A DNA stretch of 64,000 nucleotides from Alphaproteobacteria bacterium (GCA_015062495.1 SUUN01000002.1:159210-223209); one strand, 5' to 3'. Shown: positions 1,864-63,179, counted from the first letter of the stretch. Notes: a model not told the origin generated them from the sequence alone. A program made the numbers and translations.

Positions 1864-1880
1864 ACAGACGGGGAACACAC

Positions 1881-2015
1881 ATGCCATTAAAAAAGAACAA
1901 GAATTCCAAAATTCCACGCATTTTAATGTGGATACTTATCGCCATATTGATTGTGCTGATGATTATATCATTTGCCCCAACCCAGCATATGACTGAAATC
2001 GTGGTATATCCCTAA
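1881..2015 (+). CDS. small hydrophobic ORF (44 aa), possible membrane peptide
   Basis: MPLKKNKNSKIPRILMWILIAILIVLMIISF...; preceded by ggggaacacacATG; not in ORF track (<60 aa). Confidence 0.25.
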   Translation: MPLKKNKNSKIPRILMWILIAILIVLMIISFAPTQHMTEIVVYP

Positions 2016-2867
2016 ATGAACTATATTGATATATTCTTAGAAGCACTGTCGGCCGAACGCGGTCGCAGCACAAAAACCCTGGCGGGATACGAATCTGACC
2101 TGCGTCTGGCAAATGACGCTATTGTGGGTGGTTTAATGTCGGCGGACGCAGACGCGGTACAAAAATACCTGTCGTCATTACCTGACAAACCATCATCCAT
2201 CGCGCGCAAGGCATCAGCCCTGCGTGGATTTTATAAATTTTTAATGATGGAAAAAATTATTTCCCACAACCCAACCGCAAATCTTGAATTGCCCAAACGC
2301 AATCGTACCCTGCCCAAGTTTTTATCAATTGATGAAATTGAATTGCTTATTTCCAGTGCCGGCGATATCAAGACATCCATACGCCTGCGCGCAATGATTG
2401 AATTATTGTATGCATCAGGCCTGCGCGTATCCGAATTGTGCGAATTACCAATGACGGGTGTTTTGGGCGACAAACTGTTAATTCATGGCAAAGGTGCCAA
2501 AGAACGCTTGGTCCCTATGCACGACGCGGCGATTCATGCACTAAACAAATGGCTGGACGCACGTGGCGAAAACGATTCTAAATATGTATTTCCGTCCAAC
2601 GGTAAATTCGGCCACATTACCCGCGATGGATTTTTCAAGATTCTAAAAAAGTGCGCTGTTCTGGCTGGCATCGACCCATCCCGGGTCAGTCCACACGTCC
2701 TGCGTCATTCATTTGCATCGCACCTGTTGGCGGGTGGCGCAAACCTGCGCGCGATACAAACAATGCTGGGCCACGAAGATATTTCCACCACCCAGATTTA
2801 CACACACATCATGCCGGAAAAATTATGCGAAACAATTGTGGCGCACCACCCCCTGGCAAAAAAATAA
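2016..2867 (+). CDS. site-specific tyrosine recombinase XerC/XerD family
   Basis: 283 aa; RHSFASHLL...GHEDISTTQIYTHI catalytic region; C-terminal HHPLAKK resembles the XerD tail. Confidence 0.8.
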   Translation: MNYIDIFLEALSAERGRSTKTLAGYESDLRLANDAIVGGLMSADADAVQKYLSSLPDKPSSIARKASALRGFYKFLMMEKIISHNPTANLELPKRNRTLPKFLSIDEIELLISSAGDIKTSIRLRAMIELLYASGLRVSELCELPMTGVLGDKLLIHGKGAKERLVPMHDAAIHALNKWLDARGENDSKYVFPSNGKFGHITRDGFFKILKKCAVLAGIDPSRVSPHVLRHSFASHLLAGGANLRAIQTMLGHEDISTTQIYTHIMPEKLCETIVAHHPLAKK

Positions 2868-2878
2868 AGGTATAAATA

Positions 2879-3382
2879 ATGATAAAAAAATGCGATAAAC
2901 CAGGTTGCACCAAGGCCGGCACATGCCGCGCCCCAAAATCACGTGATTTACGTGACTATTGGTTTTTCTGCCAAGAACACGCGGCAGAATATAATAAAAA
3001 CTGGAATTATTACGCAGACATGACCCCTGATGAAATCGAAGCGGACTGGGAACGACAAACTTTTGGCGCCGCCCTGCGCGACAAAGAAACCGCACGCGCC
3101 GACGCATCCGACTATGCCAAATTCATCAACGATTTTATAACCGGGCGCAGCAAATTCGACAAAATGCCCGCACGCAGTAAATTACCAACAAATGTTGTAT
3201 CGGCCCTTCGTGTATTCGACCTGGGGATATCGGCCACCTGGCGCGAAGTTGGCACAAAATACCGCGCCCTGGCAAAAAAATACCACCCAGACACCGCCAC
3301 GGACAAGCAAAACGCCGCAAATGAATTTGCGCGCATTTCCACCGCATATGAAATATTAAAAAAACATTTCGGAAAAAAATAA
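2879..3382 (+). CDS. J-domain (DnaJ-like) protein with N-terminal Cys-rich region
   Basis: C-terminal J domain with HPD motif (KYRALAKKYHPDTATD...); N-term CDKPGCTKAGTC...FFCQEH. Confidence 0.65.
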   Translation: MIKKCDKPGCTKAGTCRAPKSRDLRDYWFFCQEHAAEYNKNWNYYADMTPDEIEADWERQTFGAALRDKETARADASDYAKFINDFITGRSKFDKMPARSKLPTNVVSALRVFDLGISATWREVGTKYRALAKKYHPDTATDKQNAANEFARISTAYEILKKHFGKK

Positions 3383-3408
3383 TCCCGCACATTCCGCGGG
3401 ATTTTTTA
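3376..3408 (+). terminator. rho-independent terminator (AAAAATCCCGC..GCGGGATTTTTT family)
   Basis: aatcccgcacattccgcgggatttttt immediately after J-domain gene stop. Confidence 0.7.
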
Positions 3409-3479
3409 CGGAATTCATACCTGGTGACTATTCCCTGCGATTTATATACCATATAAATAACCAGAGGAGAGTCCACATC

Positions 3480-3989
3480 ATGTTACTAAAATCAAAAATT
3501 TGTTTTACATCAATTGCAATATACGAAATTATCGCAGTATCGTTTCTGCATTTTCAACGTCTTTGCGATTCCATATTTTCATCCAGTTTTTGTGCCGGTT
3601 GGTATCGCTATTTTCTGTTCTGCATTGTTGTTCCATTAATTGCCCTATTAATATGGATGTGGATACGCGAAATAATCCGTGTTCGTCGCCGTCACCGTTT
3701 TATCCGCCGTGCGAAAAATGCCGCATCTGGCATCATATCCAGCATCCGCGGCCATGTATCTGAAAACATCAGTTCCGCAGACCTGGAAAAAATAATCACC
3801 GCAGCGGTCTTGATTGGAATAAAACAGTACGCAGACCGTCACCCTAACCTGCGCAAAAATGTGAACAATATTATGGGGCTGGCGAATGGTGAAATTGACA
3901 TTGATTTAATGTCCACCGACGATGAAATGCCGAAAAAACAAACGCGCACCAAAGTTCAAAAAAACACCAAGCGCAAACGCACTAAATAA
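3480..3989 (+). CDS. hypothetical membrane protein with basic C-terminal tail
   Basis: strong SD (gaggagagtccacatcATG); two TM helices, Arg-rich linker, KR-rich C-terminus. Confidence 0.5.
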   Translation: MLLKSKICFTSIAIYEIIAVSFLHFQRLCDSIFSSSFCAGWYRYFLFCIVVPLIALLIWMWIREIIRVRRRHRFIRRAKNAASGIISSIRGHVSENISSADLEKIITAAVLIGIKQYADRHPNLRKNVNNIMGLANGEIDIDLMSTDDEMPKKQTRTKVQKNTKRKRTK

Positions 3990-4095
3990 AAAACAAATTC
4001 CCCGACCATCGGGGAAAACTTATAAAAGCAATATCGCATAAATTAAATAAATTAAAGAACTTTCAAAACAAAGCCCCTAGCATCGGGGAAAAAAT

Positions 4096-4192
4096 TAAAG
4101 ATAATGGTATAGATAAACGGGTTGGAAATGGCGTAGTGTACAGAAGTTACATGAGCCATTGCCAACCCGATTTAGATATGCCATTAGATTTA
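4096..4192. repeat. hairpin repeat element, type A termini (MITE/REP-like), copy 1
   Basis: taaagataatggtatagata..cgggttgg..gtagtgtacagaagttacatgag..ccaacccg..agatatgccattagattta; imperfect inverted termini, self-complementary inner stems. Confidence 0.75.
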
Positions 4193-5089
4193 ATTTTTGT
4201 TCAGGTACAATATGGCGTCCATCCCCGCACTACACCCCGTCCCCACAGCCGTCGCAATCTGCATTTTCAAATTGCTGTGAACATCCCCTGCGACATACAT
4301 ACCCACCGGCAACGCATCCGGGGCCAGGCGTCCCAACGCATCGCGCTTGACCTCTTCGGTCAGATAGTCTGTGTTCGCTTCGTGTCCAATGGCGACAAAC
4401 AAACCATCGGCAACAATTTCCGCACCGTCGGTTGTCGTGATAATTAATTCACCATCGGCCGAATCTGGCTTTGCCGCAATTTTTGCCAAATCTGTATTAA
4501 ACAGGCATTCTATGTTATCGCGTGCCTCAACCCGTTCGCGCAGAACTGCCTCGGCCCGGGTGAACGCAGATTTACGATACACAATCTTAACCGTCTTGGC
4601 CAAATCTGCCAAATACAGCGCATCGTTCAGCGCACTATTACCGCCCCCCATAACAACAACGGTTTTACCACTGTAAAAGAAACCATCACACGTCGCGCAA
4701 TATGACACACCGCGCCCCATAAATTCACGCGCGCCTTCGATTTCCAACTTACGCGGGCTTGCCCCTGTGGCAATAATAATGGTTTTACCAACATATTCCG
4801 CGCCATTATCACATATAACTTTGTATCCTGATTCCGCATCGCCTGTGATATTCTTGGCCGAAACAAATTCAACCACCGCCCCAAATGTTTCGCACTGTTT
4901 TTTCATAAATTCCGCCAATTCAAACCCAGAACCGGCCCAACCTGGATAATTTTCCAATGTTGCAATACCCGCCATCTGGCCGCCCAGTCTGTCGCCACCC
5001 AAAACAATGGTCTTTTTATTTGCACGTGCGGTATACAACGCCGCCGTCAAACCCGCCGGCCCTGAACCTAAAATAATAACATCATACAT
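4190..5089 (-). CDS. trxB: thioredoxin-disulfide reductase
   Basis: start set at MYDVIILGSGPAGL (FAD GxGxxG); CATCDG redox motif; NADPH GGGNSA motif. Confidence 0.9.
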   Translation of the reverse strand: MYDVIILGSGPAGLTAALYTARANKKTIVLGGDRLGGQMAGIATLENYPGWAGSGFELAEFMKKQCETFGAVVEFVSAKNITGDAESGYKVICDNGAEYVGKTIIIATGASPRKLEIEGAREFMGRGVSYCATCDGFFYSGKTVVVMGGGNSALNDALYLADLAKTVKIVYRKSAFTRAEAVLRERVEARDNIECLFNTDLAKIAAKPDSADGELIITTTDGAEIVADGLFVAIGHEANTDYLTEEVKRDALGRLAPDALPVGMYVAGDVHSNLKMQIATAVGTGCSAGMDAILYLNKN

Positions 5090-6629: not shown

Positions 6630-6660
6630 TAAAAATCCCGCAATTGCGGGATTTTTATTT
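6630..6660. terminator. bidirectional rho-independent terminator between convergent serS and tatA
   Basis: aaaaatcccgcaattgcgggattttt, T/A runs on both sides. Confidence 0.75.
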
Positions 6661-6879
6661 ATTTCTTTTTCTGTGTTTTTTCACAGGCGCTTTTTTTGCA
6701 ACAGATTTTTTCTGTGGCTTCGCTTCTTGCTTTGGCGCAGTCTTTTTTATTTCCTTTTTAAAAATATTCAAACCATCCGCCAAATTTTTCATCATGCCTG
6801 GAATTTTATTCGACCCGAACAAAATAACCACCAAAACAACAATAACCAGAATCTCAGCCCATCCAAAACGTCCAAACAT
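6655..6879 (-). CDS. tatA: twin-arginine translocase subunit TatA/E
   Basis: 74 aa; MFGRFGWAEILVIVVLVVILFG TM + amphipathic helix + Lys-rich tail. Confidence 0.8.
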   Translation of the reverse strand: MFGRFGWAEILVIVVLVVILFGSNKIPGMMKNLADGLNIFKKEIKKTAPKQEAKPQKKSVAKKAPVKKHRKRNK

Positions 6880-9971: not shown

Positions 9972-10049
9972 GTTTTAGATAAAAACAAAACCGACAACGC
10001 AGTGTACAGAAGCTACATAAGTTGTCGGTTTTGTTTTTAGATGAATTAT
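9972..10049. repeat. hairpin repeat element, type B termini, copy
   Basis: ttagataaaaacaaaaccgacaacgcagtgtacagaagctacataagttgtcggttttgtttttagatgaattatt. Confidence 0.7.
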
Positions 10050-10055
10050 TTTTGT

Positions 10056-10772
10056 TTATTCTGCGGCGGTGAACACCTTCTGAACATCATCATTGGCATC
10101 CAGCGCATCCACCAACTTTTCCAGTTTCGCATACGCTTCGTCGTCCAAATCCATTGGCATATTTGGCAACCATGTCAATTCTGCCTGTTCTGGTTCACCC
10201 AACACATCGGCCAGATATTTCTGTGCATTGACAAAGTCTTCTGGTTTGGTTGTGATGATAAATCCTTCTTCGGATGTTTCCAGATTATCGGCATTGGCCT
10301 CCATAATAATTTCCATCATTTCGTCTTCGGTTTTGCCGATTGATGCGGGGTACATAATCTGGCCTGCGCGTGTGAACATGAACACAACAGAACCTTCTTC
10401 GCCCATATTTCCGCCATTTTTGCCAAAGATATTGCGAATTTCCGGCACAGTACGACGTGGATTATCGGTCAATGCCTCTACAATCACCGGCACTGCACCC
10501 GGTCCATAACCTTCATAACGCACAGATTCGTAATTTTCTGTATTTGAACCCGATGCCTTGTCAATTGCGCGTTTGATATTGTCGTTCGGCATAGAATTCT
10601 TGCGCGCGGTTAAAATCGCCAAACGCAGGCGTGGATTGTTATCTGGATTTTTATCACCCAACTTTGCCGCCATGGTAATTTCACGCGCCAGTTTTGTAAA
10701 CAGCCCACTGCGTGCTGCGTCGGCTGCGCCCTTTTTATGCTGAATATTGTGCCATTTACTGTGTCCACTCAT
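10056..10772 (-). CDS. YebC/PmpR family DNA-binding transcriptional regulator
   Basis: 238 aa; MSGHSKWHNIQHKKG...; family signature throughout. Confidence 0.9.
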   Translation of the reverse strand: MSGHSKWHNIQHKKGAADAARSGLFTKLAREITMAAKLGDKNPDNNPRLRLAILTARKNSMPNDNIKRAIDKASGSNTENYESVRYEGYGPGAVPVIVEALTDNPRRTVPEIRNIFGKNGGNMGEEGSVVFMFTRAGQIMYPASIGKTEDEMMEIIMEANADNLETSEEGFIITTKPEDFVNAQKYLADVLGEPEQAELTWLPNMPMDLDDEAYAKLEKLVDALDANDDVQKVFTAAE

Positions 10773-10822
10773 ATTTGACCTTTTTATTTATTTAGATTAA
10801 AATTACCCCAAAAGGATAACAA

Positions 10823-15262: not shown

Positions 15263-15357
15263 AAAGATAATGGTATAGATGCGCCGTGGTCGGCAAGCGT
15301 AGTGTACAGAAGTTACATGAGCGAACCGACCACAAGCAGATATGCCATTGGATTTTA
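15263..15357. repeat. hairpin repeat element, type A termini, copy 2a
   Basis: aaagataatggtatagatgcgccgtggtcggcaagcgtagtgtacagaagttacatgagcgaaccgaccacaagcagatatgccattggatttta. Confidence 0.75.
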
Positions 15358-15364
15358 TAAAATT

Positions 15365-15462
15365 AAAGATAATGGTATAGATATGGGATGGGGGCGACAT
15401 CGTAGTGTACAAACGCTACATGAGATGTCACCCCCGCCCATAGATATGCCATTAGATTTTAT
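15365..15462. repeat. hairpin repeat element, type A termini, copy 2b (tandem with 2a)
   Basis: core variant gtagtgtacaaacgctacatgag, flanked by gggatgggggcgacatc / gatgtcacccccgccc inverted stems. Confidence 0.75.
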
Positions 15463-15464
15463 TT

Positions 15465-17963
15465 TTAATCTTTAATGCGGGCTAAATCATCATACACCTT
15501 GTATTTCTGGTCACCTGTTTCGCGATATTCATATGCAGCCGCGCCCGCTGAATAGATATTAAACAATTCTGTTGTCTTATCGACCGCCATACGCATCATT
15601 TGGGCGGTTTGTTCCGCGTCATATTCAATCACCCGCGCGTCATTGTTTTTCAGTTGTAAAAACCGCATAATCGGCGCACGCGACAATGATGTTGTCTGAA
15701 TTGGAAAACCGCCCGACTGTAAAATATACGCCTCCAACGGTAATTGTGGCATATTGCCCTGCTCTAACTGGCTTTTTGATGGTGCGGCACCGGTCTTAAC
15801 ATCCATAACCCCACCATCCCATATGCGATCTGCGCGCGCACGCACATTGCGTCCCGCAATTTTAACGCACCCACCAATTTCCGCATACGCATTTTGAACG
15901 CTTGTCAATTCATTGGCAATAACCGGCGCAATTTCCAAGAACCGCTTATGCCAGAAATGAAATATCACACTGCCCGCGCCCAATTTTTCCAACGCCCGCC
16001 GATCCATTTCTGCGACCAATACGTCCGGGCGCAAATCCGTCGCATGTTCAATCACATCGTGAACCAGATTTCCAAAATCACGCGCATCAACCCCAACCCA
16101 ATAATCATCCAACACCCGCAACCGCAAAATATGTCGCACATAAAATGAATACGGATTATGAATCAAATGTTCTAACTCTGTCACATATACATCCGACCAA
16201 TCGGCGGGTGGCACAGGCGCAGAATAATCCAGCGGCCTATACGGCACATCATCACGCGCCAAAACCGCATCCAAAATTTCTGTATCCCGATTAAACACAC
16301 CCCGTCGCGCAATCACGCGTGATATAAAACGCGATTCTGTTGTCTGAACACCGCCGGACACACCCGACCGCAACCAATACACACACTTTCCACACGACAG
16401 ATTCATAAAATCCAGCGCCTGCAGGGACACTTTGCGATTTGGTGATGGCAACCCAATTTTTTCCGCCACCACACGTGGCAACCACGCATTTTCATACCCG
16501 CGCGATGGAAACATCCCTTCGTTCAGCCCCGTCAAAATCACAACATCCGCCGTCTGCATACGCGATTCAATTGTCCCCAGCACAACCACGTCTGCCCCAT
16601 CACGCATTGCACCACGTACCGACACGCCCGACAACGCATCTCCAACAAACGTGCGCGCATCCGACAATGTTAAATCTATCCCTGCCACATTCAGTGCATT
16701 TGACATATCGCGCAACGCCAACCAAATTTCCACATTATCATCCGCGACAAATTGTGGCTGAAACTGTGGCATATACAAATCCACAATCATCGCAATTGTA
16801 TTAAATAAATCATGATTATTTTCGGCATAGATTTTATCAAACGCATTTGATTTTTGTTCAATCCATGTATCTAATAAATTCAGAATCGCCCGCCCCTGTG
16901 CCGTCATCGTGCCGGGCACACCACCTGAAAAATCTGCATCCACACCACGTGCACGCAATGCCGCCGCAATACGCTGGTTTCCCGCCGCATCCGGCGTTAT
17001 CACCAACACAGATTTATTCTGCGCAACGGCACGCGCGGCAATTTCCGCAACCACGTCTGCCTCAACCCCTTCACGTGGAACAGTGACCAGGTGACAGTTT
17101 GATAAATCCGCATCTATATCACATGCCGCACAATCATTCCCAAATGCATAATTCATAAAATCTATTTTTGACGCCCCAACATCAATTGGCCGAACATCCC
17201 CCGCCCCTAACCCCAGGCGTGACAAGAACTTATATTCCGCATTGTACGGATTTGTATCTAATTCAAAGTCTTCCACGCGCCCCGCAATTTTCCCCGACAG
17301 GATAATCCGCCCATGTGGCGCGCGTGCAACAGATTCCATCAAATCGGCTGTGGCGGGCACACTGGCGGTTGATGCGCAGACAATCACCAATTTATATTTA
17401 TCCAGTTGATTTGCCCATGCATGAATATCGCGATTTCGCGCCGCAACCGCCGTAATTCGCCCCCCCGCATACTTATCCATAAATCCTGACAAAATCCCCA
17501 GGATTTTTGCCTTGCTTTGAAAATGTGTGGCATATTTTTCATCAACCAACGACGCCCAATCTATTGTTGCTGCATCCACCCCTTCGTTTTCCATATAGTC
17601 CTGCATACGCACCAAATCATGGGCCACAGACAATGCGGTCGTCAAATTTCCCACATTTGCGTCCGCCGCCAACAATCGGGTTAAAATCGCAACACGTTCA
17701 ACATTTAAAATAATATCCGGGGAATTTTCTGTATCATCTGCATCTTCGTCCACCCCTTCGCCCAGTGCAACCAAACGTGGCAAAATTGCCACCCCACCCG
17801 ACCGTTCCGCAATCATTTTTTCGACCGTGCGCACAGCGCGCCGACTGGGCAGAAATATCAGCATGTCTGCCACATCCACCCCAGATTCCACCATAACACG
17901 CCACAGCGCATCCGCCATCCGCGCCGGATTTGTCGCATAAAAGATATTGTTATTTAATGCCAA
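15465..17963 (-). CDS. AddB-like double-strand break repair nuclease (PD-(D/E)XK family), no adjacent AddA
   Basis: 832 aa; C-terminal RecB-type nuclease signature (ARADRIWDGGVMDVKTGAAPS). Confidence 0.6.
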   Translation of the reverse strand: MALNNNIFYATNPARMADALWRVMVESGVDVADMLIFLPSRRAVRTVEKMIAERSGGVAILPRLVALGEGVDEDADDTENSPDIILNVERVAILTRLLAADANVGNLTTALSVAHDLVRMQDYMENEGVDAATIDWASLVDEKYATHFQSKAKILGILSGFMDKYAGGRITAVAARNRDIHAWANQLDKYKLVIVCASTASVPATADLMESVARAPHGRIILSGKIAGRVEDFELDTNPYNAEYKFLSRLGLGAGDVRPIDVGASKIDFMNYAFGNDCAACDIDADLSNCHLVTVPREGVEADVVAEIAARAVAQNKSVLVITPDAAGNQRIAAALRARGVDADFSGGVPGTMTAQGRAILNLLDTWIEQKSNAFDKIYAENNHDLFNTIAMIVDLYMPQFQPQFVADDNVEIWLALRDMSNALNVAGIDLTLSDARTFVGDALSGVSVRGAMRDGADVVVLGTIESRMQTADVVILTGLNEGMFPSRGYENAWLPRVVAEKIGLPSPNRKVSLQALDFMNLSCGKCVYWLRSGVSGGVQTTESRFISRVIARRGVFNRDTEILDAVLARDDVPYRPLDYSAPVPPADWSDVYVTELEHLIHNPYSFYVRHILRLRVLDDYWVGVDARDFGNLVHDVIEHATDLRPDVLVAEMDRRALEKLGAGSVIFHFWHKRFLEIAPVIANELTSVQNAYAEIGGCVKIAGRNVRARADRIWDGGVMDVKTGAAPSKSQLEQGNMPQLPLEAYILQSGGFPIQTTSLSRAPIMRFLQLKNNDARVIEYDAEQTAQMMRMAVDKTTELFNIYSAGAAAYEYRETGDQKYKVYDDLARIKD

Positions 17964-22252: not shown

Positions 22253-22267
22253 ATAATAAATTAAAAT

Positions 22268-22366
22268 AAAAGATAATGATATAGATACGGGATAGGGGCG
22301 ACATCGTAGTGTACAGAAGTTACATGAGATGTTGCCCCCGCCCGTAGATATGCCATTAGATTTTAT
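22268..22366. repeat. hairpin repeat element, type A termini, copy 3a
   Basis: aaagataatgatatagatacgggataggggcgacatcgtagtgtacagaagttacatgagatgttgcccccgcccgtagatatgccattagatttta. Confidence 0.75.
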
Positions 22367-22377
22367 TGAAAATAAAT

Positions 22378-25163: not shown

Positions 25164-25206
25164 ATATTATCCCTTTGATATAAAAATGTACCCTTGCACA
25201 AAAAAT

Positions 25207-25304
25207 AAAAAATAATGGTATAGATACGGGATGGGGGCGACATCATAGTGTACAGAAGTTACATGAGATGTTGCCCCCGCCCGTAGATACGCCATTAGAT
25301 TTTA
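25207..25304. repeat. hairpin repeat element, type A termini, copy 4
   Basis: ataatggtatagatacgggatgggggcgacatcatagtgtacagaagttacatgagatgttgcccccgcccgtagatacgccattagatttta. Confidence 0.75.
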
Positions 25305-25307
25305 TTT

Positions 25308-25838
25308 TTATTTCAACGGGGGGAAACAGTCGCCACTACCCTCTTTCGGACAGCACGCAAACACCGTATTCCCCAAATCCTTGAACACTTCATCGCCACA
25401 GCACCCAAATTTATTGGGCTGACTGCCATCGGCGCACAGCCCCGCATCCAGATTGGCTAATTCCTGTTCCAACTCTATCATCGGGTCAATTTCCACAACA
25501 TCTTGCTGAACCACAGATTCTACCTCTGGCGATTCTTGGACGACATCCTCTACAACAGTCGATACCTCTTCGGGTGCGGCGGTCACTTCAACAACTATCC
25601 GCGCTTCCCCAGACGTCCGACGCCCACGCGCAGATTTCGTACACGTACGACGATATTCCGCCTTTAATTTTGTCAGTTCTGCCGTCTCGGCTTCTGTTGG
25701 TTCATCTATTTTACCAATTTCAGACACCCGCGCCGATATGTCTGCGCAACTCATCCTCTCTGACACAACCTGGCCTGCGCCATCGGCAAACGCCCCCGAC
25801 ACAAAGCAACTTAACATTAAAGTAAAAAGTAATTTCAT
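25308..25838 (-). CDS. secreted cysteine-rich protein (CC-x-CC family), paralog 2 with acidic linker
   Basis: signal peptide, acidic VxE-rich linker, C-terminal FGCCGDEVFKD...FACCPKEGSGDCFPPLK homologous to paralog 1. Confidence 0.55.
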   Translation of the reverse strand: MKLLFTLMLSCFVSGAFADGAGQVVSERMSCADISARVSEIGKIDEPTEAETAELTKLKAEYRRTCTKSARGRRTSGEARIVVEVTAAPEEVSTVVEDVVQESPEVESVVQQDVVEIDPMIELEQELANLDAGLCADGSQPNKFGCCGDEVFKDLGNTVFACCPKEGSGDCFPPLK

Positions 25839-46173: not shown

Positions 46174-46423
46174 TTTGGACCCTTTTTTATTTCGGGCGCG
46201 AAAAAACAGAATTTGGAATTTCGGCACCCACATTTAATTGTTAACCTTCAGGGGCGCAGGTCAAACCGGCCGCGCGGTGCCACCCTGATTTATAACTTTT
46301 TTATCCGTTGCGTCATTCCATGGTTGTCAGTCATATCATCACAACGCAAATCAGATGAATCACACAGACAAGAGTATATCTACCTTTTTTCTCAATGGCA
46401 AGCAATTTATAAAAAAAATACAA

Positions 46424-46663
46424 TCAAAAGAATTTCTTTTGAAATATTCTACCATTACCTGTTTTAAGAAAAATTTCAAAATTCCGTGCTTTCTCTTCAC
46501 TATCAAACGCCACATACCCATGCAGGGTCCATGGTTTAAATTTATTGGTATATATCGATTTTCCATCATTATGTTCTTTTAAGCGCCTTTTTAAATCACC
46601 TGTGCAACCAACATAAAAACGTTCTGGGAAATTTATACTTCGCAAAAGATAAACATAAAACAT
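46424..46663 (-). CDS. GIY-YIG nuclease family small protein (YhbQ-like), copy 2
   Basis: MFYVYLLRS...FYVGCTGDLKRRLKEHN; paralog of 34461-34706. Confidence 0.7.
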   Translation of the reverse strand: MFYVYLLRSINFPERFYVGCTGDLKRRLKEHNDGKSIYTNKFKPWTLHGYVAFDSEEKARNFEIFLKTGNGRIFQKKFF

Positions 46664-48081: not shown

Positions 48082-48106
48082 AAAAACCGCCACACGGGCG
48101 GCGGTT
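48082..48106 (-). terminator. rho-independent terminator after GT8 paralog 2
   Basis: minus strand: aaccgccgcccgtgtggcggttttt. Confidence 0.65.
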
Positions 48107-49085: not shown

Positions 49086-49191
49086 AAACCCCTTTCAAAT
49101 AAATGTCTCTCTAAGCATAAAACACAAACAAAACAAACACAAGAATTTATACCTGCCACAAAAACCGCCACACGGGCTGTTTGAATTCTGA

Positions 49192-49233
49192 TAGCAGCGG
49201 AGGGATTCGGACCCCCGACCAAAGGATTATGAT
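49192..49233 (-). other. 3'-half fragment of tRNA-Met (attL-like direct repeat of islet)
   Basis: tagcagcggagggattcggacccccgaccaaaggattatgat: 42/42 identical to 53879-53920 (anticodon loop to discriminator); 5' half absent. Confidence 0.75.
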
Positions 49234-49559
49234 ATACCAGCGCTGGGGAATTTCTCCGCACGAGCTAGGCAGAAATCCGCACCTTTCATAAGCATACAAA
49301 ATTTCTATGTACGCAATATGTCCGCCGAAAGAAAAAACGCAATCAGATTAAATACAAAATTCACTTTAACAAAAATCGCTACACCACTCACATTTCTGCC
49401 ATTTTTTAACCATTTTTCTATGTAAAGTTTTTACCCATACTTAATCATACCAAATACAAACCCCATACTTTTAATATCTAATTGAGATTTTTGATTTTTA
49501 ATGATAGACTATGAAATGAATCATTTTGGAAATTTTATTCCTTTAATACGGTAAAAAAC

Positions 49560-50216
49560 ATGAAACTAAAAGCTTTTTATTTTCTGTCATTATGTTGTCT
49601 GCTGACTGGATGTGTTGAAAGCGCAAGGACCAAGTATTTGTCTTTTTATATTGATGTTCCAAAACAAGATCCAAGTCCGTCCAAAGCAGTGTTTTCCTCG
49701 GTTGTACCTACTGACGGTCCGGATGGTGTATGCATATACAAAAATGGTAAGTGCGATAATTCCAATCTAGATTTTTTGATAAAAGATTTTAAGAAAGAAT
49801 TTGATTCAGATTTTATAGCAACATACTATGCTCTTAAGGTAAACGATAATACAAACAAATTCCAAGGCTGTGGATATATGTTTATGGATTCAGAAATAAA
49901 AGAACATGAAAATGAATACGAAACCAAATCGAACAACTTGGTTTTGAGAACCTGGGCAACTTGTCCGACAGAATCAACATTTGATTATCGAACATATGTT
50001 TTTTACAAAAATAAAGAAATCGGTACAGTAAACTTATTGAATTCTGTCTATGACGAAGAAAACAGGGAATGGGTCAAAGAGATTGTGCCAAAAATAGCAT
50101 TGTGTGCAGCCAAAACTGGTTTTAAGGGCGTAATTGGTGGCGAGGAATATTTTGTTGAAAGGCCAAAAAGTCCCTCTATGGAAGAGTTTTTTGATCAATG
50201 TGGTATGGATTGGTAA
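49560..50216 (+). CDS. islet lipoprotein, hypothetical
   Basis: LSLCCLLTGC lipobox; 218 aa; foreign codon usage. Confidence 0.5.
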   Translation: MKLKAFYFLSLCCLLTGCVESARTKYLSFYIDVPKQDPSPSKAVFSSVVPTDGPDGVCIYKNGKCDNSNLDFLIKDFKKEFDSDFIATYYALKVNDNTNKFQGCGYMFMDSEIKEHENEYETKSNNLVLRTWATCPTESTFDYRTYVFYKNKEIGTVNLLNSVYDEENREWVKEIVPKIALCAAKTGFKGVIGGEEYFVERPKSPSMEEFFDQCGMDW

Positions 50217-50218
50217 AA

Positions 50219-50842
50219 ATGAAATTAAAAACAATAAGCATTTGTCTGTTTTTTATAATAATTGGTTGGAATTGTAATGCAAAAACATTTTCAACAGCAG
50301 AACATCCAAAAAGCAAGGGAATAGAGTTAAATATTGAATATCCTGATCATTGGATATTTGCATCAGGTAAAAGACCAAACACTCTTGCAACATTTACCAG
50401 CGATTACAACAATGAGACTACAGATTATTCAAATGCTGTTTGCGTGCTAACGATTAAAGAATTTACGGACGCGGAAGAACTTTTGGAAAGGACGCCAACA
50501 AAATCTGATTGGGAAGAAATAATCGTTTACATAAAAGATAATACGGCTATTGAGTTTTTTGAATCAACCTATCAAAATGCCAAAGTACTATCTTCAAAAA
50601 TGACTTATTTTGATAAACAACCCGGCTTTATCGCAGAAGGAACTGGGTTAGCAGTCCGCGCCGGTCAAGAAATGTTCGCTCATGGCAATGTATACTTTTT
50701 TGGATATGAAAATAAAGTTATAGCAATATCATGCAGCACTTATGCTTTTACACAAGAGGCAGCTGACAAGAGATTTGAAATAGAGAAACAAAACTTTGCA
50801 TTTGTGGCCAACAGTATTATTGTTATGAATCAATATAAATAA
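50219..50842 (+). CDS. islet secreted protein, hypothetical
   Basis: start at MKLKTISICLFFIIIGWNCNA (signal peptide), 2 nt after upstream stop. Confidence 0.5.
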   Translation: MKLKTISICLFFIIIGWNCNAKTFSTAEHPKSKGIELNIEYPDHWIFASGKRPNTLATFTSDYNNETTDYSNAVCVLTIKEFTDAEELLERTPTKSDWEEIIVYIKDNTAIEFFESTYQNAKVLSSKMTYFDKQPGFIAEGTGLAVRAGQEMFAHGNVYFFGYENKVIAISCSTYAFTQEAADKRFEIEKQNFAFVANSIIVMNQYK

Positions 50843-50879
50843 AACACCAAAAATTTACCAAAACATTACCAAGACAAGT

Positions 50880-51089
50880 GTGTTGTATATTGTAAATAAT
50901 ACAACAAAGGAAATCATAATGTATGAAAATTTTAACAACAATGACATATTAGCCGCCGGGGGCCTGAAAATGATTTTAGACCTTAAGCAAATAGACAAAG
51001 AAACCGCAGATCGCATAGAGCTGTTGATTAAATATATGATACGCCAACAACTTGATGATCACAGACAACATATAATAATGGGCGTTTAA
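50880..51089 (+). CDS. islet small helical ORF (possible start at 50919, 56 aa)
   Basis: RBS aaaggaaatcataATG at internal Met. Confidence 0.3.
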   Translation: MLYIVNNTTKEIIMYENFNNNDILAAGGLKMILDLKQIDKETADRIELLIKYMIRQQLDDHRQHIIMGV

Positions 51090-51095
51090 GATACT

Positions 51096-51281
51096 TTGCC
51101 TCCTGTATTTGTACGCGGACTTCGCGTGTCGGCATTATATCTTGACGACCAGGATTTACAAAAAGAGGTTTCTAAATTCCTGGACGAACCAAATATGAAA
51201 AACCTTGAAGACATCATACACAAACTCGATGAATCAATAGCCAAAAAGCAATTAGACAAATTATTAAAGAAAAACAGATAA
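51096..51281 (+). CDS. islet small helical ORF (61 aa)
   Basis: ORF only. Confidence 0.25.
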   Translation: MPPVFVRGLRVSALYLDDQDLQKEVSKFLDEPNMKNLEDIIHKLDESIAKKQLDKLLKKNR

Positions 51282-51430
51282 ATGCCAAAAAAATAGGCTG
51301 TGGTTTTGTTTGTGTTCCAAAGATAGAATCGAATTAACCGATTCGATTTAACAAAACGAAAAAAAATCAACAAATTTTATGTTTGTCTACAAATAGTTTT
51401 TTGTTGATTTTTTCATTTTTTTATGATAAA

Positions 51431-51467
51431 GTTGCTAGCATGAACGCAAAGAAAATTTGCTAGCAAC
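51431..51467. promoter_or_regulatory. perfect 10-bp inverted repeat (putative operator) ~100 bp upstream of the ATPase gene
   Basis: gttgctagca-N17-tgctagcaac in AT-rich region 51290-51570. Confidence 0.4.
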
Positions 51468-51571
51468 TCAAACCATCTTTTTTTGGTGGTTTTTTTTATT
51501 AGAAAAATATAGAATAAACTTGAGAAATGCTATTTATGTAGTATATTTTCTCTAAAAACAAGGTATTACAT

Positions 51572-52885
51572 ATGCAAATAACTCTGAAAAATGTTGGGTA
51601 TATAAAAGAAGCCAAAGTGGATTTAGTTGGCTTAAATGTAATTGCTGGTCCAAACGGAACAGGTAAAAGCACCGTTGGCAAAACTGTTTTTTCAATAATA
51701 AAATCCATAAGTGAAAGAAACGCAATTATAAAAGAGCATAGAACAGAAATTATAAAAGGTTTATGTAGCTCAATTTTTTATGCTATACAAAACAACTTGG
51801 ATATCAAAGGGCTAACCACTAAAGACCCATCATACAGAGACTTGAGCATCCTGATGGATAACTTTAACTATAGACCTTTTGCTATGACATTGATAAGATG
51901 TCTAGAATCCAATTCTTTTATAGATGCCAGAAATCGCATAGTAAAAAATATAGCTTTAGTCGATTCTATGGAGACTTTAGACAACAAAAGTAAGTTATCT
52001 GCCAAAAGGCTTTTAGATAATTTGTTGAGTGTTTTTGTAGAAATCAACGATAATGATGCTATAACAAAATCTCTACAATATATGTATCAAGAAATATTTA
52101 GAGAACAGATCAACAATATCAACACTCACGAAACATCTGAAGTTTTGTTCGAGAATAACGGTTCTACCCTAGAATACATGGTTTCTAATAATGCGGAAAT
52201 ACTGCCATTTTCAGAGAGGTTCAAAATTCTTAATTTAGACTCTCCTCTAAAAGAAAGCATTTTTCCTAGAGTTACATTTGTTGAAACCCCTCTTGTCTTA
52301 CAAGTATCAGAATGTAGCGGATTGCCTTTGTATTGGAGTGACCTACTTTCAAAATTGAAAATTGATATAAATACTGCTAATACAGGTATTAACAAATGGG
52401 TCTATGATGAAATTTCTGATATTCTTGGTGGCGAACTGATTCATATATCAGAAAAACAAGAATTTTATTTTATCCCAAAAGGCACCAGCAATAAACTATA
52501 TGTCAACAATATGGCCTCAGGTGAAAAATTATTTGGCATTTTACAAAGATTATCAAAAATGGGCTTTTTGTCTTCTGATCATTTGTTAATTTTTGACGAA
52601 CCAGAAAACCATTTACACCCTCAATGGCAAGTAAAACTTGCAGAAATATTGGTTTCTCTTGTTGAGAATAATATTTCCGTATTATTAACAACACACAGCT
52701 CTACACTAATAAGTGCCTTACGACAATTTGCAAAATCTAAAGACGTTGTAAAAAAGACAAAATTTTATTTTGCTGATCCTGAAAATAAAAAGATAACAAA
52801 CGTAAATTCCCTTAATGAAAAAGGCGAAGATGTTATTTACAAATCTTTTTATGAGTCTAAAAAATTTTTGCCAGAGTTCAAATAA
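51572..52885 (+). CDS. ABC/OLD-type (AAA_15/AAA_21-like) ATPase, candidate defense-system component
   Basis: 437 aa; Walker A GPNGTGKST, signature-like NMASGEKLFGIL, Walker B/D-loop LLIFDEPENHLHP, H-loop TTHS. Confidence 0.8.
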   Translation: MQITLKNVGYIKEAKVDLVGLNVIAGPNGTGKSTVGKTVFSIIKSISERNAIIKEHRTEIIKGLCSSIFYAIQNNLDIKGLTTKDPSYRDLSILMDNFNYRPFAMTLIRCLESNSFIDARNRIVKNIALVDSMETLDNKSKLSAKRLLDNLLSVFVEINDNDAITKSLQYMYQEIFREQINNINTHETSEVLFENNGSTLEYMVSNNAEILPFSERFKILNLDSPLKESIFPRVTFVETPLVLQVSECSGLPLYWSDLLSKLKIDINTANTGINKWVYDEISDILGGELIHISEKQEFYFIPKGTSNKLYVNNMASGEKLFGILQRLSKMGFLSSDHLLIFDEPENHLHPQWQVKLAEILVSLVENNISVLLTTHSSTLISALRQFAKSKDVVKKTKFYFADPENKKITNVNSLNEKGEDVIYKSFYESKKFLPEFK

Positions 52886-52886
52886 A

Positions 52887-53441
52887 ATGAAAAAATCAAC
52901 ACCTGTTTGTAGTATTTGTAACAGTGAAAAATCCTTATGTGGTTGCTGTGAGGCAGAGAATATCACATCGAACAAAGATTGGAGCTGCAAAGAAAAAAAT
53001 GATTATAATTTTTTAAATCAATGTATTTTTTGTGAAGGAAAACATCTGTGCTCAACAGGAAGCAATCCAGATTGTATCTATAAATATAACGGTAATTACG
53101 TAGCTGCTATAGAGATTAAAGACCAACCAGAAAACAGTATAGAATACAATATTCTTGTAAAAAAAATAAAAAATTTCTATGACAAGTCTATTGAACAAAA
53201 CTTAATTCCTTCTGTTTTTATTTTACAAATATCAAACGCAAAAAATACAGATGAAGGATTATACTCGTTACAAGACTCATGTACTTATGGTCTAGGCAAC
53301 TACGGTTTTTCAATTGGATATGGAGGAACATTATTCAGTTCAAATGAAAATTTAGCTTACATAAAATGTAGGTTTTTTGTTGTAAAATGCGCCGAATTAA
53401 CAGAAGATTTGTTTTTTCAATTACTACAAACCGACGCATAG
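52887..53441 (+). CDS. Cys-rich Zn-ribbon protein with putative PD-(D/E)xK-like core, coupled partner of the ATPase
   Basis: ATG 1 nt after ATPase stop; CSICNSEKSLCGCC...CIFCEGKHLC; NPDCIYKYNGNYVAAIEIKD (PD...ExK spacing); no clear HNH motif. Confidence 0.55.
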   Translation: MKKSTPVCSICNSEKSLCGCCEAENITSNKDWSCKEKNDYNFLNQCIFCEGKHLCSTGSNPDCIYKYNGNYVAAIEIKDQPENSIEYNILVKKIKNFYDKSIEQNLIPSVFILQISNAKNTDEGLYSLQDSCTYGLGNYGFSIGYGGTLFSSNENLAYIKCRFFVVKCAELTEDLFFQLLQTDA

Positions 53442-53580
53442 TGCGTATACAAAAATACTATCAACAATAAATATTTTTTTAGAAAAAAACACTTGATTCA
53501 ACCATTGTTAGAATTTTATACAAGCATGAATTATATATTTCTATATCCAGCACATATACATATCTGCCAAAGAGCAAAAC

Positions 53581-53616
53581 TTAAAAAACACCGCCTATTT
53601 GGGGCGGTGTTTTTAA
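53581..53616 (+). terminator. rho-independent terminator after islet two-gene cassette
   Basis: aaaaaacaccgcctatttggggcggtgtttttaa. Confidence 0.75.
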
Positions 53617-53847
53617 TTATATTTATATTACTTTTGTAAAGAGTCATACCCCTTTGTAAACCTTTGTCATTCTTCGCAAGCTTTTGTCGCGACTTTCTGT
53701 TTGTTTCCCTTTATAATTCATAGTGTAAAACAAGCAAAAGGATTACACATGTAAATATATTTTCTATGTCCGAAATTATGTCCAGTATATGTAAACACAT
53801 CTGCTAAAAATTACAAATTCGGGCGAAACTGAGAACTTTTTGCTAAA

Positions 53848-53873
53848 TAAAAAATCCCGGTTAACCGGGAAAT
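53848..53873 (-). terminator. rho-independent terminator immediately 3' of tRNA-Met
   Basis: minus strand: tcccggttaaccgggatttttt. Confidence 0.7.
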
Positions 53874-53875
53874 TC

Positions 53876-53950
53876 TGGTAGCAGCGGAGGGATTCGGACC
53901 CCCGACCAAAGGATTATGATTCCTCTGCTCTACCACTGAGCTACGCTGCC
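53876..53950 (-). tRNA. tRNA-Met (anticodon CAT; elongator type; tRNA-Ile2 not excluded), 75 nt, CCA encoded
   Basis: GGCAGCGTAGCTCAGTGGTAGAGCAGAGGAATCATAATCCTTTGGTCGGGGGTCCGAATCCCTCCGCTGCTACCA; anticodon stem GAGGA/TCCTT lacks the initiator 3xGC. Confidence 0.85.
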
Positions 53951-54087
53951 AAGCGTCACGCATTATAACAACATTTTTTTCAAAAGCAAGAAAAACAAAC
54001 ACGCCGATTTTATTCGTATTTACAATCATTATTTTTTTTAACAAAATAGATTTGAACCCAACCCTAATTTATGGTATCATACACCTT

Positions 54088-61912: not shown

Positions 61913-62011
61913 CGCTTTTTTAGCGCGCTATTCCTAGCAGTGGGGTAAAAAATAAAGATAATGGTATAGATGCGCTCAAAACCACAACCTCTTGCGGTGG
62001 AAAAAATTAAA

Positions 62012-62097
62012 TAGAATGATTTAGATACGAGATGGGGGTGACAACGTAGTGTACAAAAGTTACATGAGTTGTCGCCCCCGCTCGTAGATGAATTATT
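62012..62097. repeat. hairpin repeat element, type B termini, copy (preceded by partial type-A left end at 61954-61975)
   Basis: tagaatgatttagatacgagatgggggtgacaacgtagtgtacaaaagttacatgagttgtcgcccccgctcgtagatgaattatta. Confidence 0.7.
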
Positions 62098-62108
62098 ATA
62101 TTTAATTT

Positions 62109-63179
62109 TTATGATAATACGCTTGTAATCTGGTCCTGCATCTGAAACGTCCCCAATACAACCCAGGCGATTATTGCAGACACCAACAAAATTCCCAAAC
62201 TGTTTAATGTGCTGGAAATCTTTTCCATTTTGCGCACTGATTCATTCAAATAATCATTTGCAACCTGATTCAGATTTTCATCAAATTCGTTCATATCGGC
62301 ATAAATTGTCAAATCCCCAATAATTTCAGAATCCGGGAAATCACGTCCAGTGTGCGCCAATGCCCGCCCCAGGTTTTCACCATTTGCAATATACTTTAAC
62401 GCGCGTTCTAAAATACTTTTCAGATATCTGTTTGCACTGTCCGCCAGCATTCGCATCGCATCCGGAATTGTAACACCGGCACTGACCATTGCGCCCAAAC
62501 TCATCAACCAACCAACCGACACTTGGATTTTATAAACATTCCACGGCGGTAATTTATCAAACATTGCGCGCAATCGTCCCGACCAGTTTGCCAGACTTAT
62601 CCATACAACCGCAACAACGGACGCAAACACAACCAAGAATATATACCAATATTCAATCGCAAAATCCGACAACCACACCAGTGATCGCGCCGACCCGCGC
62701 CAAACAACATCGTTTCCTGCGATTTCTGCCAACGGTGGCACCAAATACAACCCCACCATAATGATAATACCGAACGTCAACGCCAACAAAAACATTGGAT
62801 ACCCAATCGCAGACGCCATTGCACGTTTTATCCGTTGTGTTCCATCAACAACGCGCCCAACATTTTCCAACGCCACGACCAGGTTTGATAAATTCCCCGA
62901 TGTCACCAACAACGTTTCATTTTCTGGCACCCAACCGCGCGTCGCTTCGGAAAAAGTCATACCGCGTTCCAGATTCTTTTGCCATTCGCGCATCACAATT
63001 GCAAACGGTTCACGCGGTTTTGTACCATTGTGTGATTCAACCATTTCCAATCGTTCCAGCGCATCAATCAATGTAAAATCATTACGCAACAGCGACGCCA
63101 ATTTTCGACAAATTGACATACGCTTTTCCGTATTTAACCGGAACATCATTTTTGCATATAATAATTCCAGTTTATTCAT
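62109..63179 (-). CDS. type II secretion / type IV pilus platform protein (GspF/PilC family)
   Basis: 356 aa; 3 TM segments; GspF-like cytoplasmic domains. Confidence 0.7.
   Translation of the reverse strand: MNKLELLYAKMMFRLNTEKRMSICRKLASLLRNDFTLIDALERLEMVESHNGTKPREPFAIVMREWQKNLERGMTFSEATRGWVPENETLLVTSGNLSNLVVALENVGRVVDGTQRIKRAMASAIGYPMFLLALTFGIIIMVGLYLVPPLAEIAGNDVVWRGSARSLVWLSDFAIEYWYIFLVVFASVVAVVWISLANWSGRLRAMFDKLPPWNVYKIQVSVGWLMSLGAMVSAGVTIPDAMRMLADSANRYLKSILERALKYIANGENLGRALAHTGRDFPDSEIIGDLTIYADMNEFDENLNQVANDYLNESVRKMEKISSTLNSLGILLVSAIIAWVVLGTFQMQDQITSVLS

Follow-up and report, generated by a model that had tools for sequence, protein, structure and literature searches.

The closest published descriptions of the locus considered here concern the cis-mobilizable element (CIME), which was defined, along with the process of accretion, for streptococcal elements (PMC5704250), the tRNA-seeded islands that are built by tycheposons in streamlined Prochlorococcus (bioRxiv 10.1101/2020.12.28.424599), and the defence system HEC-02, composed of the ATP-binding cassette (ABC) ATPase HEC-02A and the NERD-family PD-(D/E)xK protein HEC-02B, both genes of which are needed for defence (bioRxiv 10.1101/2024.01.29.577857). 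The locus is an islet of 4,637 bp that adjoins a tRNA-Met gene in a stretch of 64,000 nucleotides from an Alphaproteobacteria bacterium (GCA_015062495.1 SUUN01000002.1:159210-223209). The whole stretch is called the window, and its positions are counted from its first letter; the loci compared with it are denoted by L followed by a number. The islet resembles a non-autonomous integrative element of the CIME kind, and its cargo includes a gene pair for an ABC-type ATPase and a smaller partner protein. The favoured explanation, held at a probability of about 0.7, is that a tyrosine integrase of the prophage type, working on the tRNA-Met core, both made and moved this CIME-like islet, that the islet now lacks an integrase of its own, and that the gene pair is a defence cassette in which the ATPase would license a nuclease.

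Like a CIME, the islet has attL- and attR-type copies of a tRNA end and no genes for integration or transfer, and its relatives lie in tandem with an integrase-bearing element that uses the same site and has an att arm in common with them. Unlike in the streptococcal case, the presumed helper is a prophage (with GpA terminase and ParB-methylase) rather than a conjugative element, the bacterium is a gut-dwelling member of the Alphaproteobacteria whose genome is smaller than 1 Mb, and mobilisation here is presumed. The likeness to the tycheposon islands consists of the streamlined genome, the insertion at tRNA genes (one of them a tRNA-Met), the arrays split by partial tRNA copies, the degenerate integrase-less remnants that pile up beside the tRNA and the presence of defence genes among the cargo; the difference is that the integrases at the present site are P4-type (Arm-DNA-bind_3 and Phage_integrase, with an HTH_17 Xis) and that no replication module is seen in the islets. 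P4-type tRNA islands, of which the element in L003 is a minimal example, have their target tRNA and core type in common with the present islet, and in L003 the cassette as well, whereas the islet of the window has no integrase and its arms differ from those of L003. Small tRNA-linked defence islands are ordinary, and the islet fits the published CIME and tRNA-seeded models, with a prophage as the likely helper.

The borders of the islet are given by the sole long direct repeat that a repeat search found between 47 and 56 kb, with 50 nt and 49 identical positions (Table 1). One copy belongs to the intact tRNA-Met gene (anticodon CAT, encoded CCA), which scored 66.3 bits against Rfam RF00005, and the other is a remnant at the opposite end; each runs from the tRNA anticodon loop to the encoded CCA and 5 nt past it, and the lone mismatch, at position 49191, lies within the CCA of the remnant. 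The initial annotation had described the tRNA-Met and a 42-nt exact copy of its 3' half (49192-49233) as bracketing about 4.6 kb, in the manner of an attL/attR duplication. This description holds: the 49/50 direct repeat is a duplication of the 3' part of the tRNA, the 42-nt stretch is correct because the single mismatch sits at 49191, and the repeat extends to 50 nt. The same core is also repeated in L003, L005, L027, L033 and L034, and the site used is the attachment site of P4-type tyrosine integrases (Arm-DNA-bind_3 plus Phage_integrase, with an HTH_17 excisionase-like partner). The 18-nt sequence AAAAACCGCCACACGGGC was additionally observed in two identical copies, at 48082-48099 and 49160-49177, which belong to terminator-like hairpins flanking the GT8 gene on both sides; its second copy abuts the core remnant, and the same sequence also flanks the tRNA in L035.

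The DNA between the cores is distinct in composition, as the earlier reading of an AT-rich islet with AGA, AGG and ATA codons had it. Windowed GC content was 0.29-0.35 over 49300-53800 versus about 0.40-0.48 in the flanks, and the overall values were 31.8% for the islet and 44.6% outside, with 0.26 and 0.46, respectively, at third codon positions. AGA and AGG made up 82% of the arginine codons in the islet versus 12% outside, and ATA 48% of the isoleucine codons versus 21%. The statement that no integrase, transposase or excisionase reading frame is present was also borne out, as no such domain was found in any islet open reading frame (ORF) with Pfam, NCBIfam, PADLOC and PHROGs, and two integrases (from L003 and L020) used as tblastn queries gave no match in the islet (49184-53950) at E ≤ 10, on which ground a concealed integrase pseudogene was rejected. 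Identity as a phage satellite of the PICI (phage-inducible chromosomal island) or P4 kind was likewise rejected, as the islet matched no integrase of its own and none of its ORFs matched replication/primase or capsid-hijacking modules in Pfam and PHROGs. The sole recombinase-like match of the two integrase queries in the window lies at 2016-2867 (plus strand), where a tyrosine recombinase of 283 aa is encoded; its length, and its similarity to the catalytic domains of integrases in tblastn (E 3e-11), make it XerC/D-like.

Relatives with an integrase were reached through homologs of the partner protein, a look-up of which led to L003 (GCA_045613345.1). This locus has the same synteny as the window (AsmA, aspS, tRNA-Thr and, further on, tRNA-Met and PagL), and in it exact 46-nt tRNA-Met repeats (6643-6688 and 10769-10814) enclose only three genes, which encode a 473-aa integrase (HTH_17, Arm-DNA-bind_3 and Phage_integrase), an ATPase 83% identical to that of the islet and a partner 68% identical. 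A search with the L003 integrase gave a family of 57 proteins. The integrase P0161 is that of a prophage with GpA terminase and ParB-methylase (L033-L036), and in L033, L034 and L036 the order is core, left arm of the window type, xis leader, xis and int; the prophage in L035 has the same order with only 10 nt of the core kept. The core and left arm of the window (49184/49189-49368) are 93.3-93.5% identical to the sequence beside xis-int in L033 and L034, 92% in L035 and 87% in L036, so the core and the adjacent 140 nt or so of the window are the integrase-proximal arm of the prophage. For part of this stretch the window is closer to the phage than to the islet of L005. Islet and prophage also occur together in metagenomes, for example in ERZ28436107, ERZ28436105 and JGI 3300029305; two contigs with prophage sequence are NODE_407_length_54184 and NODE_487_length_29710.

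Sister islets were found in tandem with integrase-bearing elements. In L034 an islet with both arms (1288-4851) lies between core copies directly beside the prophage, its cargo being a 157-aa gene, a 120-aa gene and a DarT-DarG pair (by Pfam) in place of the ATPase-nuclease pair. The corresponding place beside the prophage in L033 is taken by an islet, likewise without an integrase, whose cargo gene encodes 380 aa, with a partial 27-nt and a 46-nt core copy; in L027 two core copies enclose an islet that lacks an integrase (RhuM, GNAT, GH3) and adjoins xis-int. Accretion with an integrase element is thus seen for the sister islets of L034, L033 and L027, and in the window the tRNA directly follows the islet. 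A further right-arm end with a partial core was observed in L034 at 1069-1202 and suggests a third unit in that array. Separately, L028 (1203-10608) was observed to hold a tRNA-Met core remnant followed by an element in which xis (HTH_17) and an integrase gene from this family accompany Cas9-Cas1-Cas2, apparently a type II CRISPR-Cas locus carried by a small integrative element. Viral contigs, when scanned, gave no match to the L003 or P0161 integrase, to the profile of the partner, to the left arm of the phage type or to the motif of the right arm.

Both ends of the islet are non-coding arms of about 250 nt, which are about 80-95% conserved in alignments among islets with different cargo. The left arm is of the prophage type over roughly 49234-49377, its remainder being common only to other islets, and it carries ACATAGAAA(T/A)-type motifs at 49300 and 49413. 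In the right arm, positions 53653-53755 resemble the xis leader of the prophage up to the ATG, with 78% identity to the xis-upstream region of L033-L036, and in the window this ATG is directly followed by TAA; the stretch may be the scar of a lost xis-int module. The same stretch contains TTTGTAA-type repeats phased at about 10 nt, phased repeats being also seen in L034. The sequence TTTACATATACTGGACATA occurs a single time in the window, in the right arm (53777-53795), ACATAGAAAAT (with up to one mismatch) has three matches in the 64 kb, all within the arms, and a terminator hairpin of the tRNA lies at 53855-53870. The arm motifs and phased repeats have the look that an array of binding sites for an integrase or an excisionase would have. 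The right arm also has a short conserved ORF on its minus strand, with a basic product (MNYKGKQTESRDKSLRRMTKVYKGV), which was set aside because the differences between its copies were mostly non-synonymous. The islet of the window belongs to a modular family whose members have conserved non-coding arms.

Movement between lineages is indicated by L005 and L006, where the region equivalent to 50888-53984 was 96.5-97.7% identical to the window versus 76.9% for PagL, 83.6% for UDG and 84.7% for gyrB in the flanks. It follows that the right half of the islet passed between these lineages long after their split. In the left module of both loci, a 258-aa gene stands in place of the two lipoprotein-like genes of the window. 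The module boundaries at 50888 and 51307/51367 differ between loci, and on alignment they show that cargo has been reshuffled between the arms. The arms shared with a prophage, the tandem sister islets and the recent transfer together suggest an element resembling a CIME that relies on an integrase in trans. The proposal in the initial annotation of an immobilised or trans-mobilised remnant is supported by the cassette joined to an integrase in L003, by the prophage arm match of about 93% and by the tandem integrase-less sister islets.

The same chromosomal site was followed in relatives with the flanking GT8 protein as a query, which led to two metagenome-assembled genomes (MAGs) of Candidatus Enterousia, a member of the order Rs-D84 with genomes mostly below 1 Mb (PMC12306168). 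The window, too, is taken as part of a Candidatus Enterousia genome. One of these MAGs (L002) has a near-empty site, with PagL, tRNA-Met, a terminator, a 49-aa ORF and GT8 405 nt past the tRNA. In L035 an intact tRNA-Met abuts the flank that adjoins the remnant in the window (97% identical over 74 nt), which is an empty-type 3' junction. The empty site for which the initial annotation had asked was thus recovered in these two loci, both of which belong to species other than that of the window; an exact-pattern scan of metagenome contigs for the predicted same-species empty junction gave 0 matches, and a broader tRNA-end pattern gave five loci, none with a clean same-species empty site. Other occupants of the site were also found. 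L001 has 9.4 kb of other modules between tRNA and GT8 (a PDC-S57 match, GNAT, histidine phosphatase and S41 peptidase), with a 22-nt core remnant, several copies of the islet arm and no integrase, and the metagenome contigs L023, L025 and L026 have other cargo behind the same right arm. Two ORFs of L026 were read by eye, from their sequences alone, as a HigB/HigA-like pair. In L035 (4327-4860) the intact tRNA-Met was observed 165 nt to the left of the left end of the prophage, which has only 10 nt of core, and arm-like CTATGTCTAGTCTATGTAAAA motifs were present in the 5' flank of the tRNA; this layout misfits a simple 3'-end insertion and may reflect a secondary site, an inversion or an assembly error.

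Under the favoured explanation, the islet would have entered by integrase-mediated recombination at the tRNA core, and the integrase would now be supplied in trans, most likely by the prophage. Spread would occur by excision from the tandem array, either alone or jointly with the neighbouring prophage, and cargo modules between the arms would also be exchanged by recombination. If the islet excises, the predicted circular junction would read ...CCCCAGCGCTGGTAT/ATCATAATCC...CCAGAATT/TCCCGGTTAACCGGG... (TCTGCCTAGCTCGTGCGGAGAAATTCCCCAGCGCTGGTAT + ATCATAATCCTTTGGTCGGGGGTCCGAATCCCTCCGCTGCTACCAGAATT + TCCCGGTTAACCGGGATTTTTTATTTAGC in joined form), and the predicted empty site left behind would read ...GAGCAGAGGA/core/CAAACAGCCCGTGTGGCGG (GGCAGCGTAGCTCAGTGGTAGAGCAGAGGA + core + CAAACAGCCCGTGTGGCGGTTTTTGTGG in joined form). 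The ATPase would sense infection and license the nuclease to cut DNA, with phages or other mobile elements as the target.

Several observations weigh against this explanation. No excision junction was observed, and apart from the Xer-like recombinase the 64-kb window holds neither an integrase nor a prophage. The L003 integrase element lacks the arms of the islet, so the link to a cognate integrase comes from the prophage alone, and the comparison with the prophage covers its integrase-proximal end only. The partner, for its part, matches no PADLOC, Pfam or PHROGs model. The window was 100% identical to a 370-kb Joint Genome Institute (JGI) contig, Ga0307249_10000134, over the 17.3 kb compared, with 17 further similar places reported; this identical arrangement, together with the failure to find a same-species empty site, means that the islet may be fixed and no longer moving. 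It is common in its species and perhaps fixed there. The CCA mismatch in the remnant core and the broken 120-codon gene both suggest decay, and the arm copies of L001, which have no cores between modules, point to homologous recombination as well. As a separate observation, L011 (1-5635) carries the same islet and right flank at 99.6% identity to the window; to the left of window position 49207, inside the core remnant, its sequence is that of a different lineage (about 83% identity, GT8 absent, gyrB/UDG inverted), and this switch at the core reflects either a true recombinant or an assembly that is chimeric at the repeat.

The signs of decay and of fixation could be taken to mean that the islet is a dead remnant, the decayed stump of an integrase-bearing element or prophage that is inherited only vertically and whose repeats are fossils. 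Such a history agrees with the identical arrangement in the 370-kb contig and in many same-species contigs, with the lack of an empty site among the same-species loci found, with the mismatch in the CCA, with the nonsense codon of the 120-codon gene and with the xis-leader-like stretch that ends in ATG-TAA. It is nevertheless judged unlikely, at clearly less than even odds, as it fits poorly with the 96.5-98% identity of the right half in L005 and L006 between flanks of only 77-85%, with the intact arms common to islets of different cargo and with the core-adjacent arm, which has about 93% identity with the arm of a prophage that looks alive.

Exchange of cassettes at a hotspot by homologous recombination, with the arms and the tRNA as anchors, with DNA taken up beforehand as the source of new cargo and with no present-day site-specific role, is rated as doubtful to a similar degree. 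The arms conserved at 80-95% around unrelated cargo speak for it, as do the L001 arm copies that separate modules without intervening cores, the islet-internal module boundaries that vary by locus and the change of lineage inside the core in L011. Against it, full core copies of 46-50 nt bound the islets in the window, L003, L005, L027 and L034 (L033 being partial), integrases of the same family adjoin the cores, and tandem arrays split by core copies are the signature of repeated site-specific insertion. The two processes are not exclusive, and homologous exchange is compatible with an islet that arose through an integrase at the tRNA-Met core.

The ATPase of the cassette has the motifs expected of its class, with a Walker A at G26-S33 (K32), a signature-like SGE at 316-318, a Walker B (LLIFDE) at 338-343 and an H-loop (TTHS) at 373-376. 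It matched AAA_21 (2.3e-16) and AAA_15 (7.6e-12) in Pfam, and SMC_N and AAA_23 weakly. The best PADLOC match was HEC-02A (1.4e-26), with only residues 256-393 aligning well, followed by PD-T4-4_A, PDC-M47A and NsnB with nearly as high scores, and by AriA, PtuA, GajA, Old and AbiLi. Its closest solved relative is AriA (E 2.9e-5), and it exhibited a full-length match to phrog_14430 (1.7e-47); when compared with phage genomes, it gave only two weak matches, in unannotated faecal phages. The PADLOC model named HEC-02B (PDLC04146) is matched by the ATPase and not by the partner, which misfits the NERD description of HEC-02B in the paper.

The partner, in turn, had no PADLOC match at E ≤ 0.1, no Pfam match at E ≤ 5 and no PHROGs model, and gave no match against plasmids by tblastn. 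Residues C8, C11, C18, C21, C34 and C55 are invariant among its close homologs, and across 17 sequences, with identities as low as 14%, E76 and K78 do not vary and D62 hardly does. In the predicted model, D62 precedes the strand 63-67, and E76 and K78 lie in the strand 71-78. The partner is a probable PD-(D/E)xK nuclease, and a single homolog of it, P0189, touches the NERD model with an E value of 0.0096 (16.9 bits versus a cut-off of 22.1). Homologs of the partner are rare: a word-indexed search found seven, and a profile search of 1.84 billion representatives found eight clusters. ATPase homologs with 49-57% identity were found in Fibromonadales and other contigs, and each of the three examined is followed by a partner homolog of 181-186 aa with 34-45% identity. 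One distant pair adjoins a type I restriction-modification (R-M) system, an integrase and Fic in an unrelated contig, and the pair also occurs away from any integrase (L018, L030, L031). The ATPase and its partner thus form a conserved pair with abutting reading frames across distant lineages. It was further observed that in L030 (5371-5871) and L031 (5289-5813) the distant ATPase homologs (43% and 30% identical, respectively) are followed by proteins of 166-174 aa without a family match, which carry a D-A-I-Y...E-F-K-N(-Q) motif resembling the D62...E76-x-K78-D-Q of the partner; hhalign of the partner profile against these small proteins was not significant, and they are possible remote relatives of the partner within a wider superfamily.

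In its organisation the pair resembles HEC-02, being an operon of two genes, the first for an ABC-type ATPase and the second for a small (D/E)xK protein, with HEC-02A as the best PADLOC match of the ATPase. It differs in that the ATPase match covers the C-terminal half only, that the partner matches no HEC-02 or NERD model and that the partner has an extra Cys-rich N-terminal region. PARIS (AriA/AriB), Septu (PtuA/PtuB), AbiL, PD-T4-4 and the fused OLD/Gabija proteins belong to the same ATPase clade and have the same logic of a sensor ATPase plus a nuclease; unlike PARIS, Septu and Gabija, the present partner is without TOPRIM/DUF4435 or HNH and the ATPase is without a fused TOPRIM, and its similarity to the ATPases of PARIS/Septu-type pairs is restricted to the conserved ABC motifs. 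The pair is read as a divergent system of the HEC-02 (ABC-ATPase-plus-nuclease) class, and the cassette is plausible as a candidate defence system with an ATPase of the HEC-02A/PD-T4-4/AriA kind and a probable nuclease.

The pair might instead serve addiction or stabilisation, or DNA repair or partition as an SMC/RecF-like ATPase with an accessory protein. The weak SMC_N and AAA_23 matches, the absence of a recognised domain in the partner and the toxin-antitoxin pairs in the corresponding slot of the sister islets lend this some credit: in that slot, after the 120-aa gene, DarTG is found by Pfam, and other islets at the site have the HigBA-like pair by ORF reading or a PDC-S57 match. A role outside defence is nonetheless improbable, as the best family matches of the ATPase are all to defence proteins (HEC-02A, PD-T4-4_A, PDC-M47A, NsnB, AriA, PtuA and GajA), the D...ExK motif is conserved, one copy adjoins the type I R-M system and the pair persists away from integrases. 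As for the suggestion that the 50-nt repeat stems from another tRNA-Met gene that decayed on its own, it has nothing beyond the repeat itself in its favour and is refuted to near certainty, as neither ARAGORN nor Rfam at E ≤ 1 calls a tRNA in the remnant, what lies upstream of it is no 5' half of a tRNA and is the non-coding arm common to other islets and a prophage, and the same partial copy bounds elements in six other loci.

Table 1. Positions of the attachment cores, arms, genes and signals of the islet in the window.
Feature	Position	Strand	Basis or remark
tRNA-Met(CAT)	53876-53950	-	ARAGORN, Rfam; 3' 45 nt form part of the attachment core
Core copy 1, attL-type (anticodon loop to CCA + 5 nt)	53871-53920	-	50-nt repeat
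Core copy 2, attR-type remnant of the tRNA 3' part	49184-49233	-	Mismatch at 49191
Left (remnant-proximal) arm	49234-49470	-	Aligned with islets of L005, L007 and L001
218-aa protein, signal peptide and lipobox-like LLTGC, variable left cargo	49560-50216	+	ORF translation
207-aa protein, N-terminal hydrophobic signal, variable left cargo	50219-50842	+	ORF; same gene call in L011-L014
120-codon gene upstream of the defence slot	50919-51281	+	Translation, alignment with L005 1620-1982
Upstream region travelling with the cassette	51367-51571	+	Homology with the L003 element begins at 51367
ABC-type ATPase, 437 aa (AAA_15/AAA_21)	51572-52885	+	Pfam, PADLOC, PHROGs
Partner protein, 184 aa, Cys-rich N-terminal part and D62...E76-x-K78	52887-53441	+	Starts 1 nt after the ATPase stop
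Terminator-like hairpin, bidirectional	53584-53614	.	Closes the cassette
Right (tRNA-proximal) arm	53614-53870	-	Alignment; kept across islets with different cargo

All genes of the islet are on the plus strand (Table 1). The compact two-gene cassette that had been described is present, yet it does not make up the whole content, as two signal-peptide or lipoprotein-like genes and a broken 120-codon gene lie in the islet as well. The 218-aa protein gave nothing in Pfam or PHROGs and chance-level matches only in PADLOC (JetC, E 0.0068) and NCBIfam (13 bits versus a cut-off of 344), and in L005 and L007 a gene of 258 or 157 aa takes its place. The 207-aa protein has no family match above the curated cut-off in Pfam, NCBIfam, PADLOC and PHROGs; both lipoprotein-like genes are accessory cargo. 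The 120-codon gene, for which no family match was found, is a pseudogene in the window, being interrupted by an in-frame TAA at 51087-51089 where the intact copy of L005 has CAA; the gene is also present in L007, L008 and L034 (the last copy being 91% identical). A promoter-like site, TTGAGA-16-TATATT, lies at 51520-51547, by consensus match only.

Further features were observed elsewhere in the window. A palindromic intergenic repeat of about 105 nt occurs at 4085-4200, 15350-15470, 22255-22372, 25195-25312 and 61995-62112, and more weakly at 9992-10060, with 84% mean identity, and is also found in L022 and L035. RNAalifold folded it into a single long hairpin of -53 kcal/mol, in which 11 of the 44 pairs show compensatory changes, and no Rfam family was matched at the gathering score; it looks like an element similar to repetitive extragenic palindromes (REP) or miniature inverted-repeat transposable elements (MITE), or like a structured RNA family of Enterousia. 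Upstream of aspS, at 46247-46506 (minus strand), there is a T-box-leader-like match of 37.3 bits versus a gathering score of 93 (E 1.9e-5), and a short GIY-YIG ORF was called in L012 in the interval of this match.

The cargo recorded at the tRNA-Met site comprises the ATPase-nuclease pair, DarTG, a HigBA-like pair and a PDC-S57 match, and a Cas9-Cas1-Cas2 element with xis-int is found at a core remnant elsewhere. The cassette itself falls, by its sequence features, in the known class of ABC ATPase plus nuclease, with an effector that is unclassified and very rare. As a tentative proposal, for which the odds are put below even, Enterousia and its relatives may keep one tRNA-Met hotspot of interchangeable, integrase-less defence islets that bear the att arms of a resident temperate phage; the integrase of the phage, and possibly its capsid, would then move anti-phage genes between lineages, and the ATPase with its Cys-rich D...ExK partner would be a new defence system. 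The pair would extend the ABC-ATPase-plus-nuclease class with a compact candidate (437 and 184 aa) whose effector is absent from Pfam, PADLOC and PHROGs. If the proposal is true, mobilisation dependent on a phage integrase would be a testable route for the exchange of immune genes among very reduced gut symbionts.

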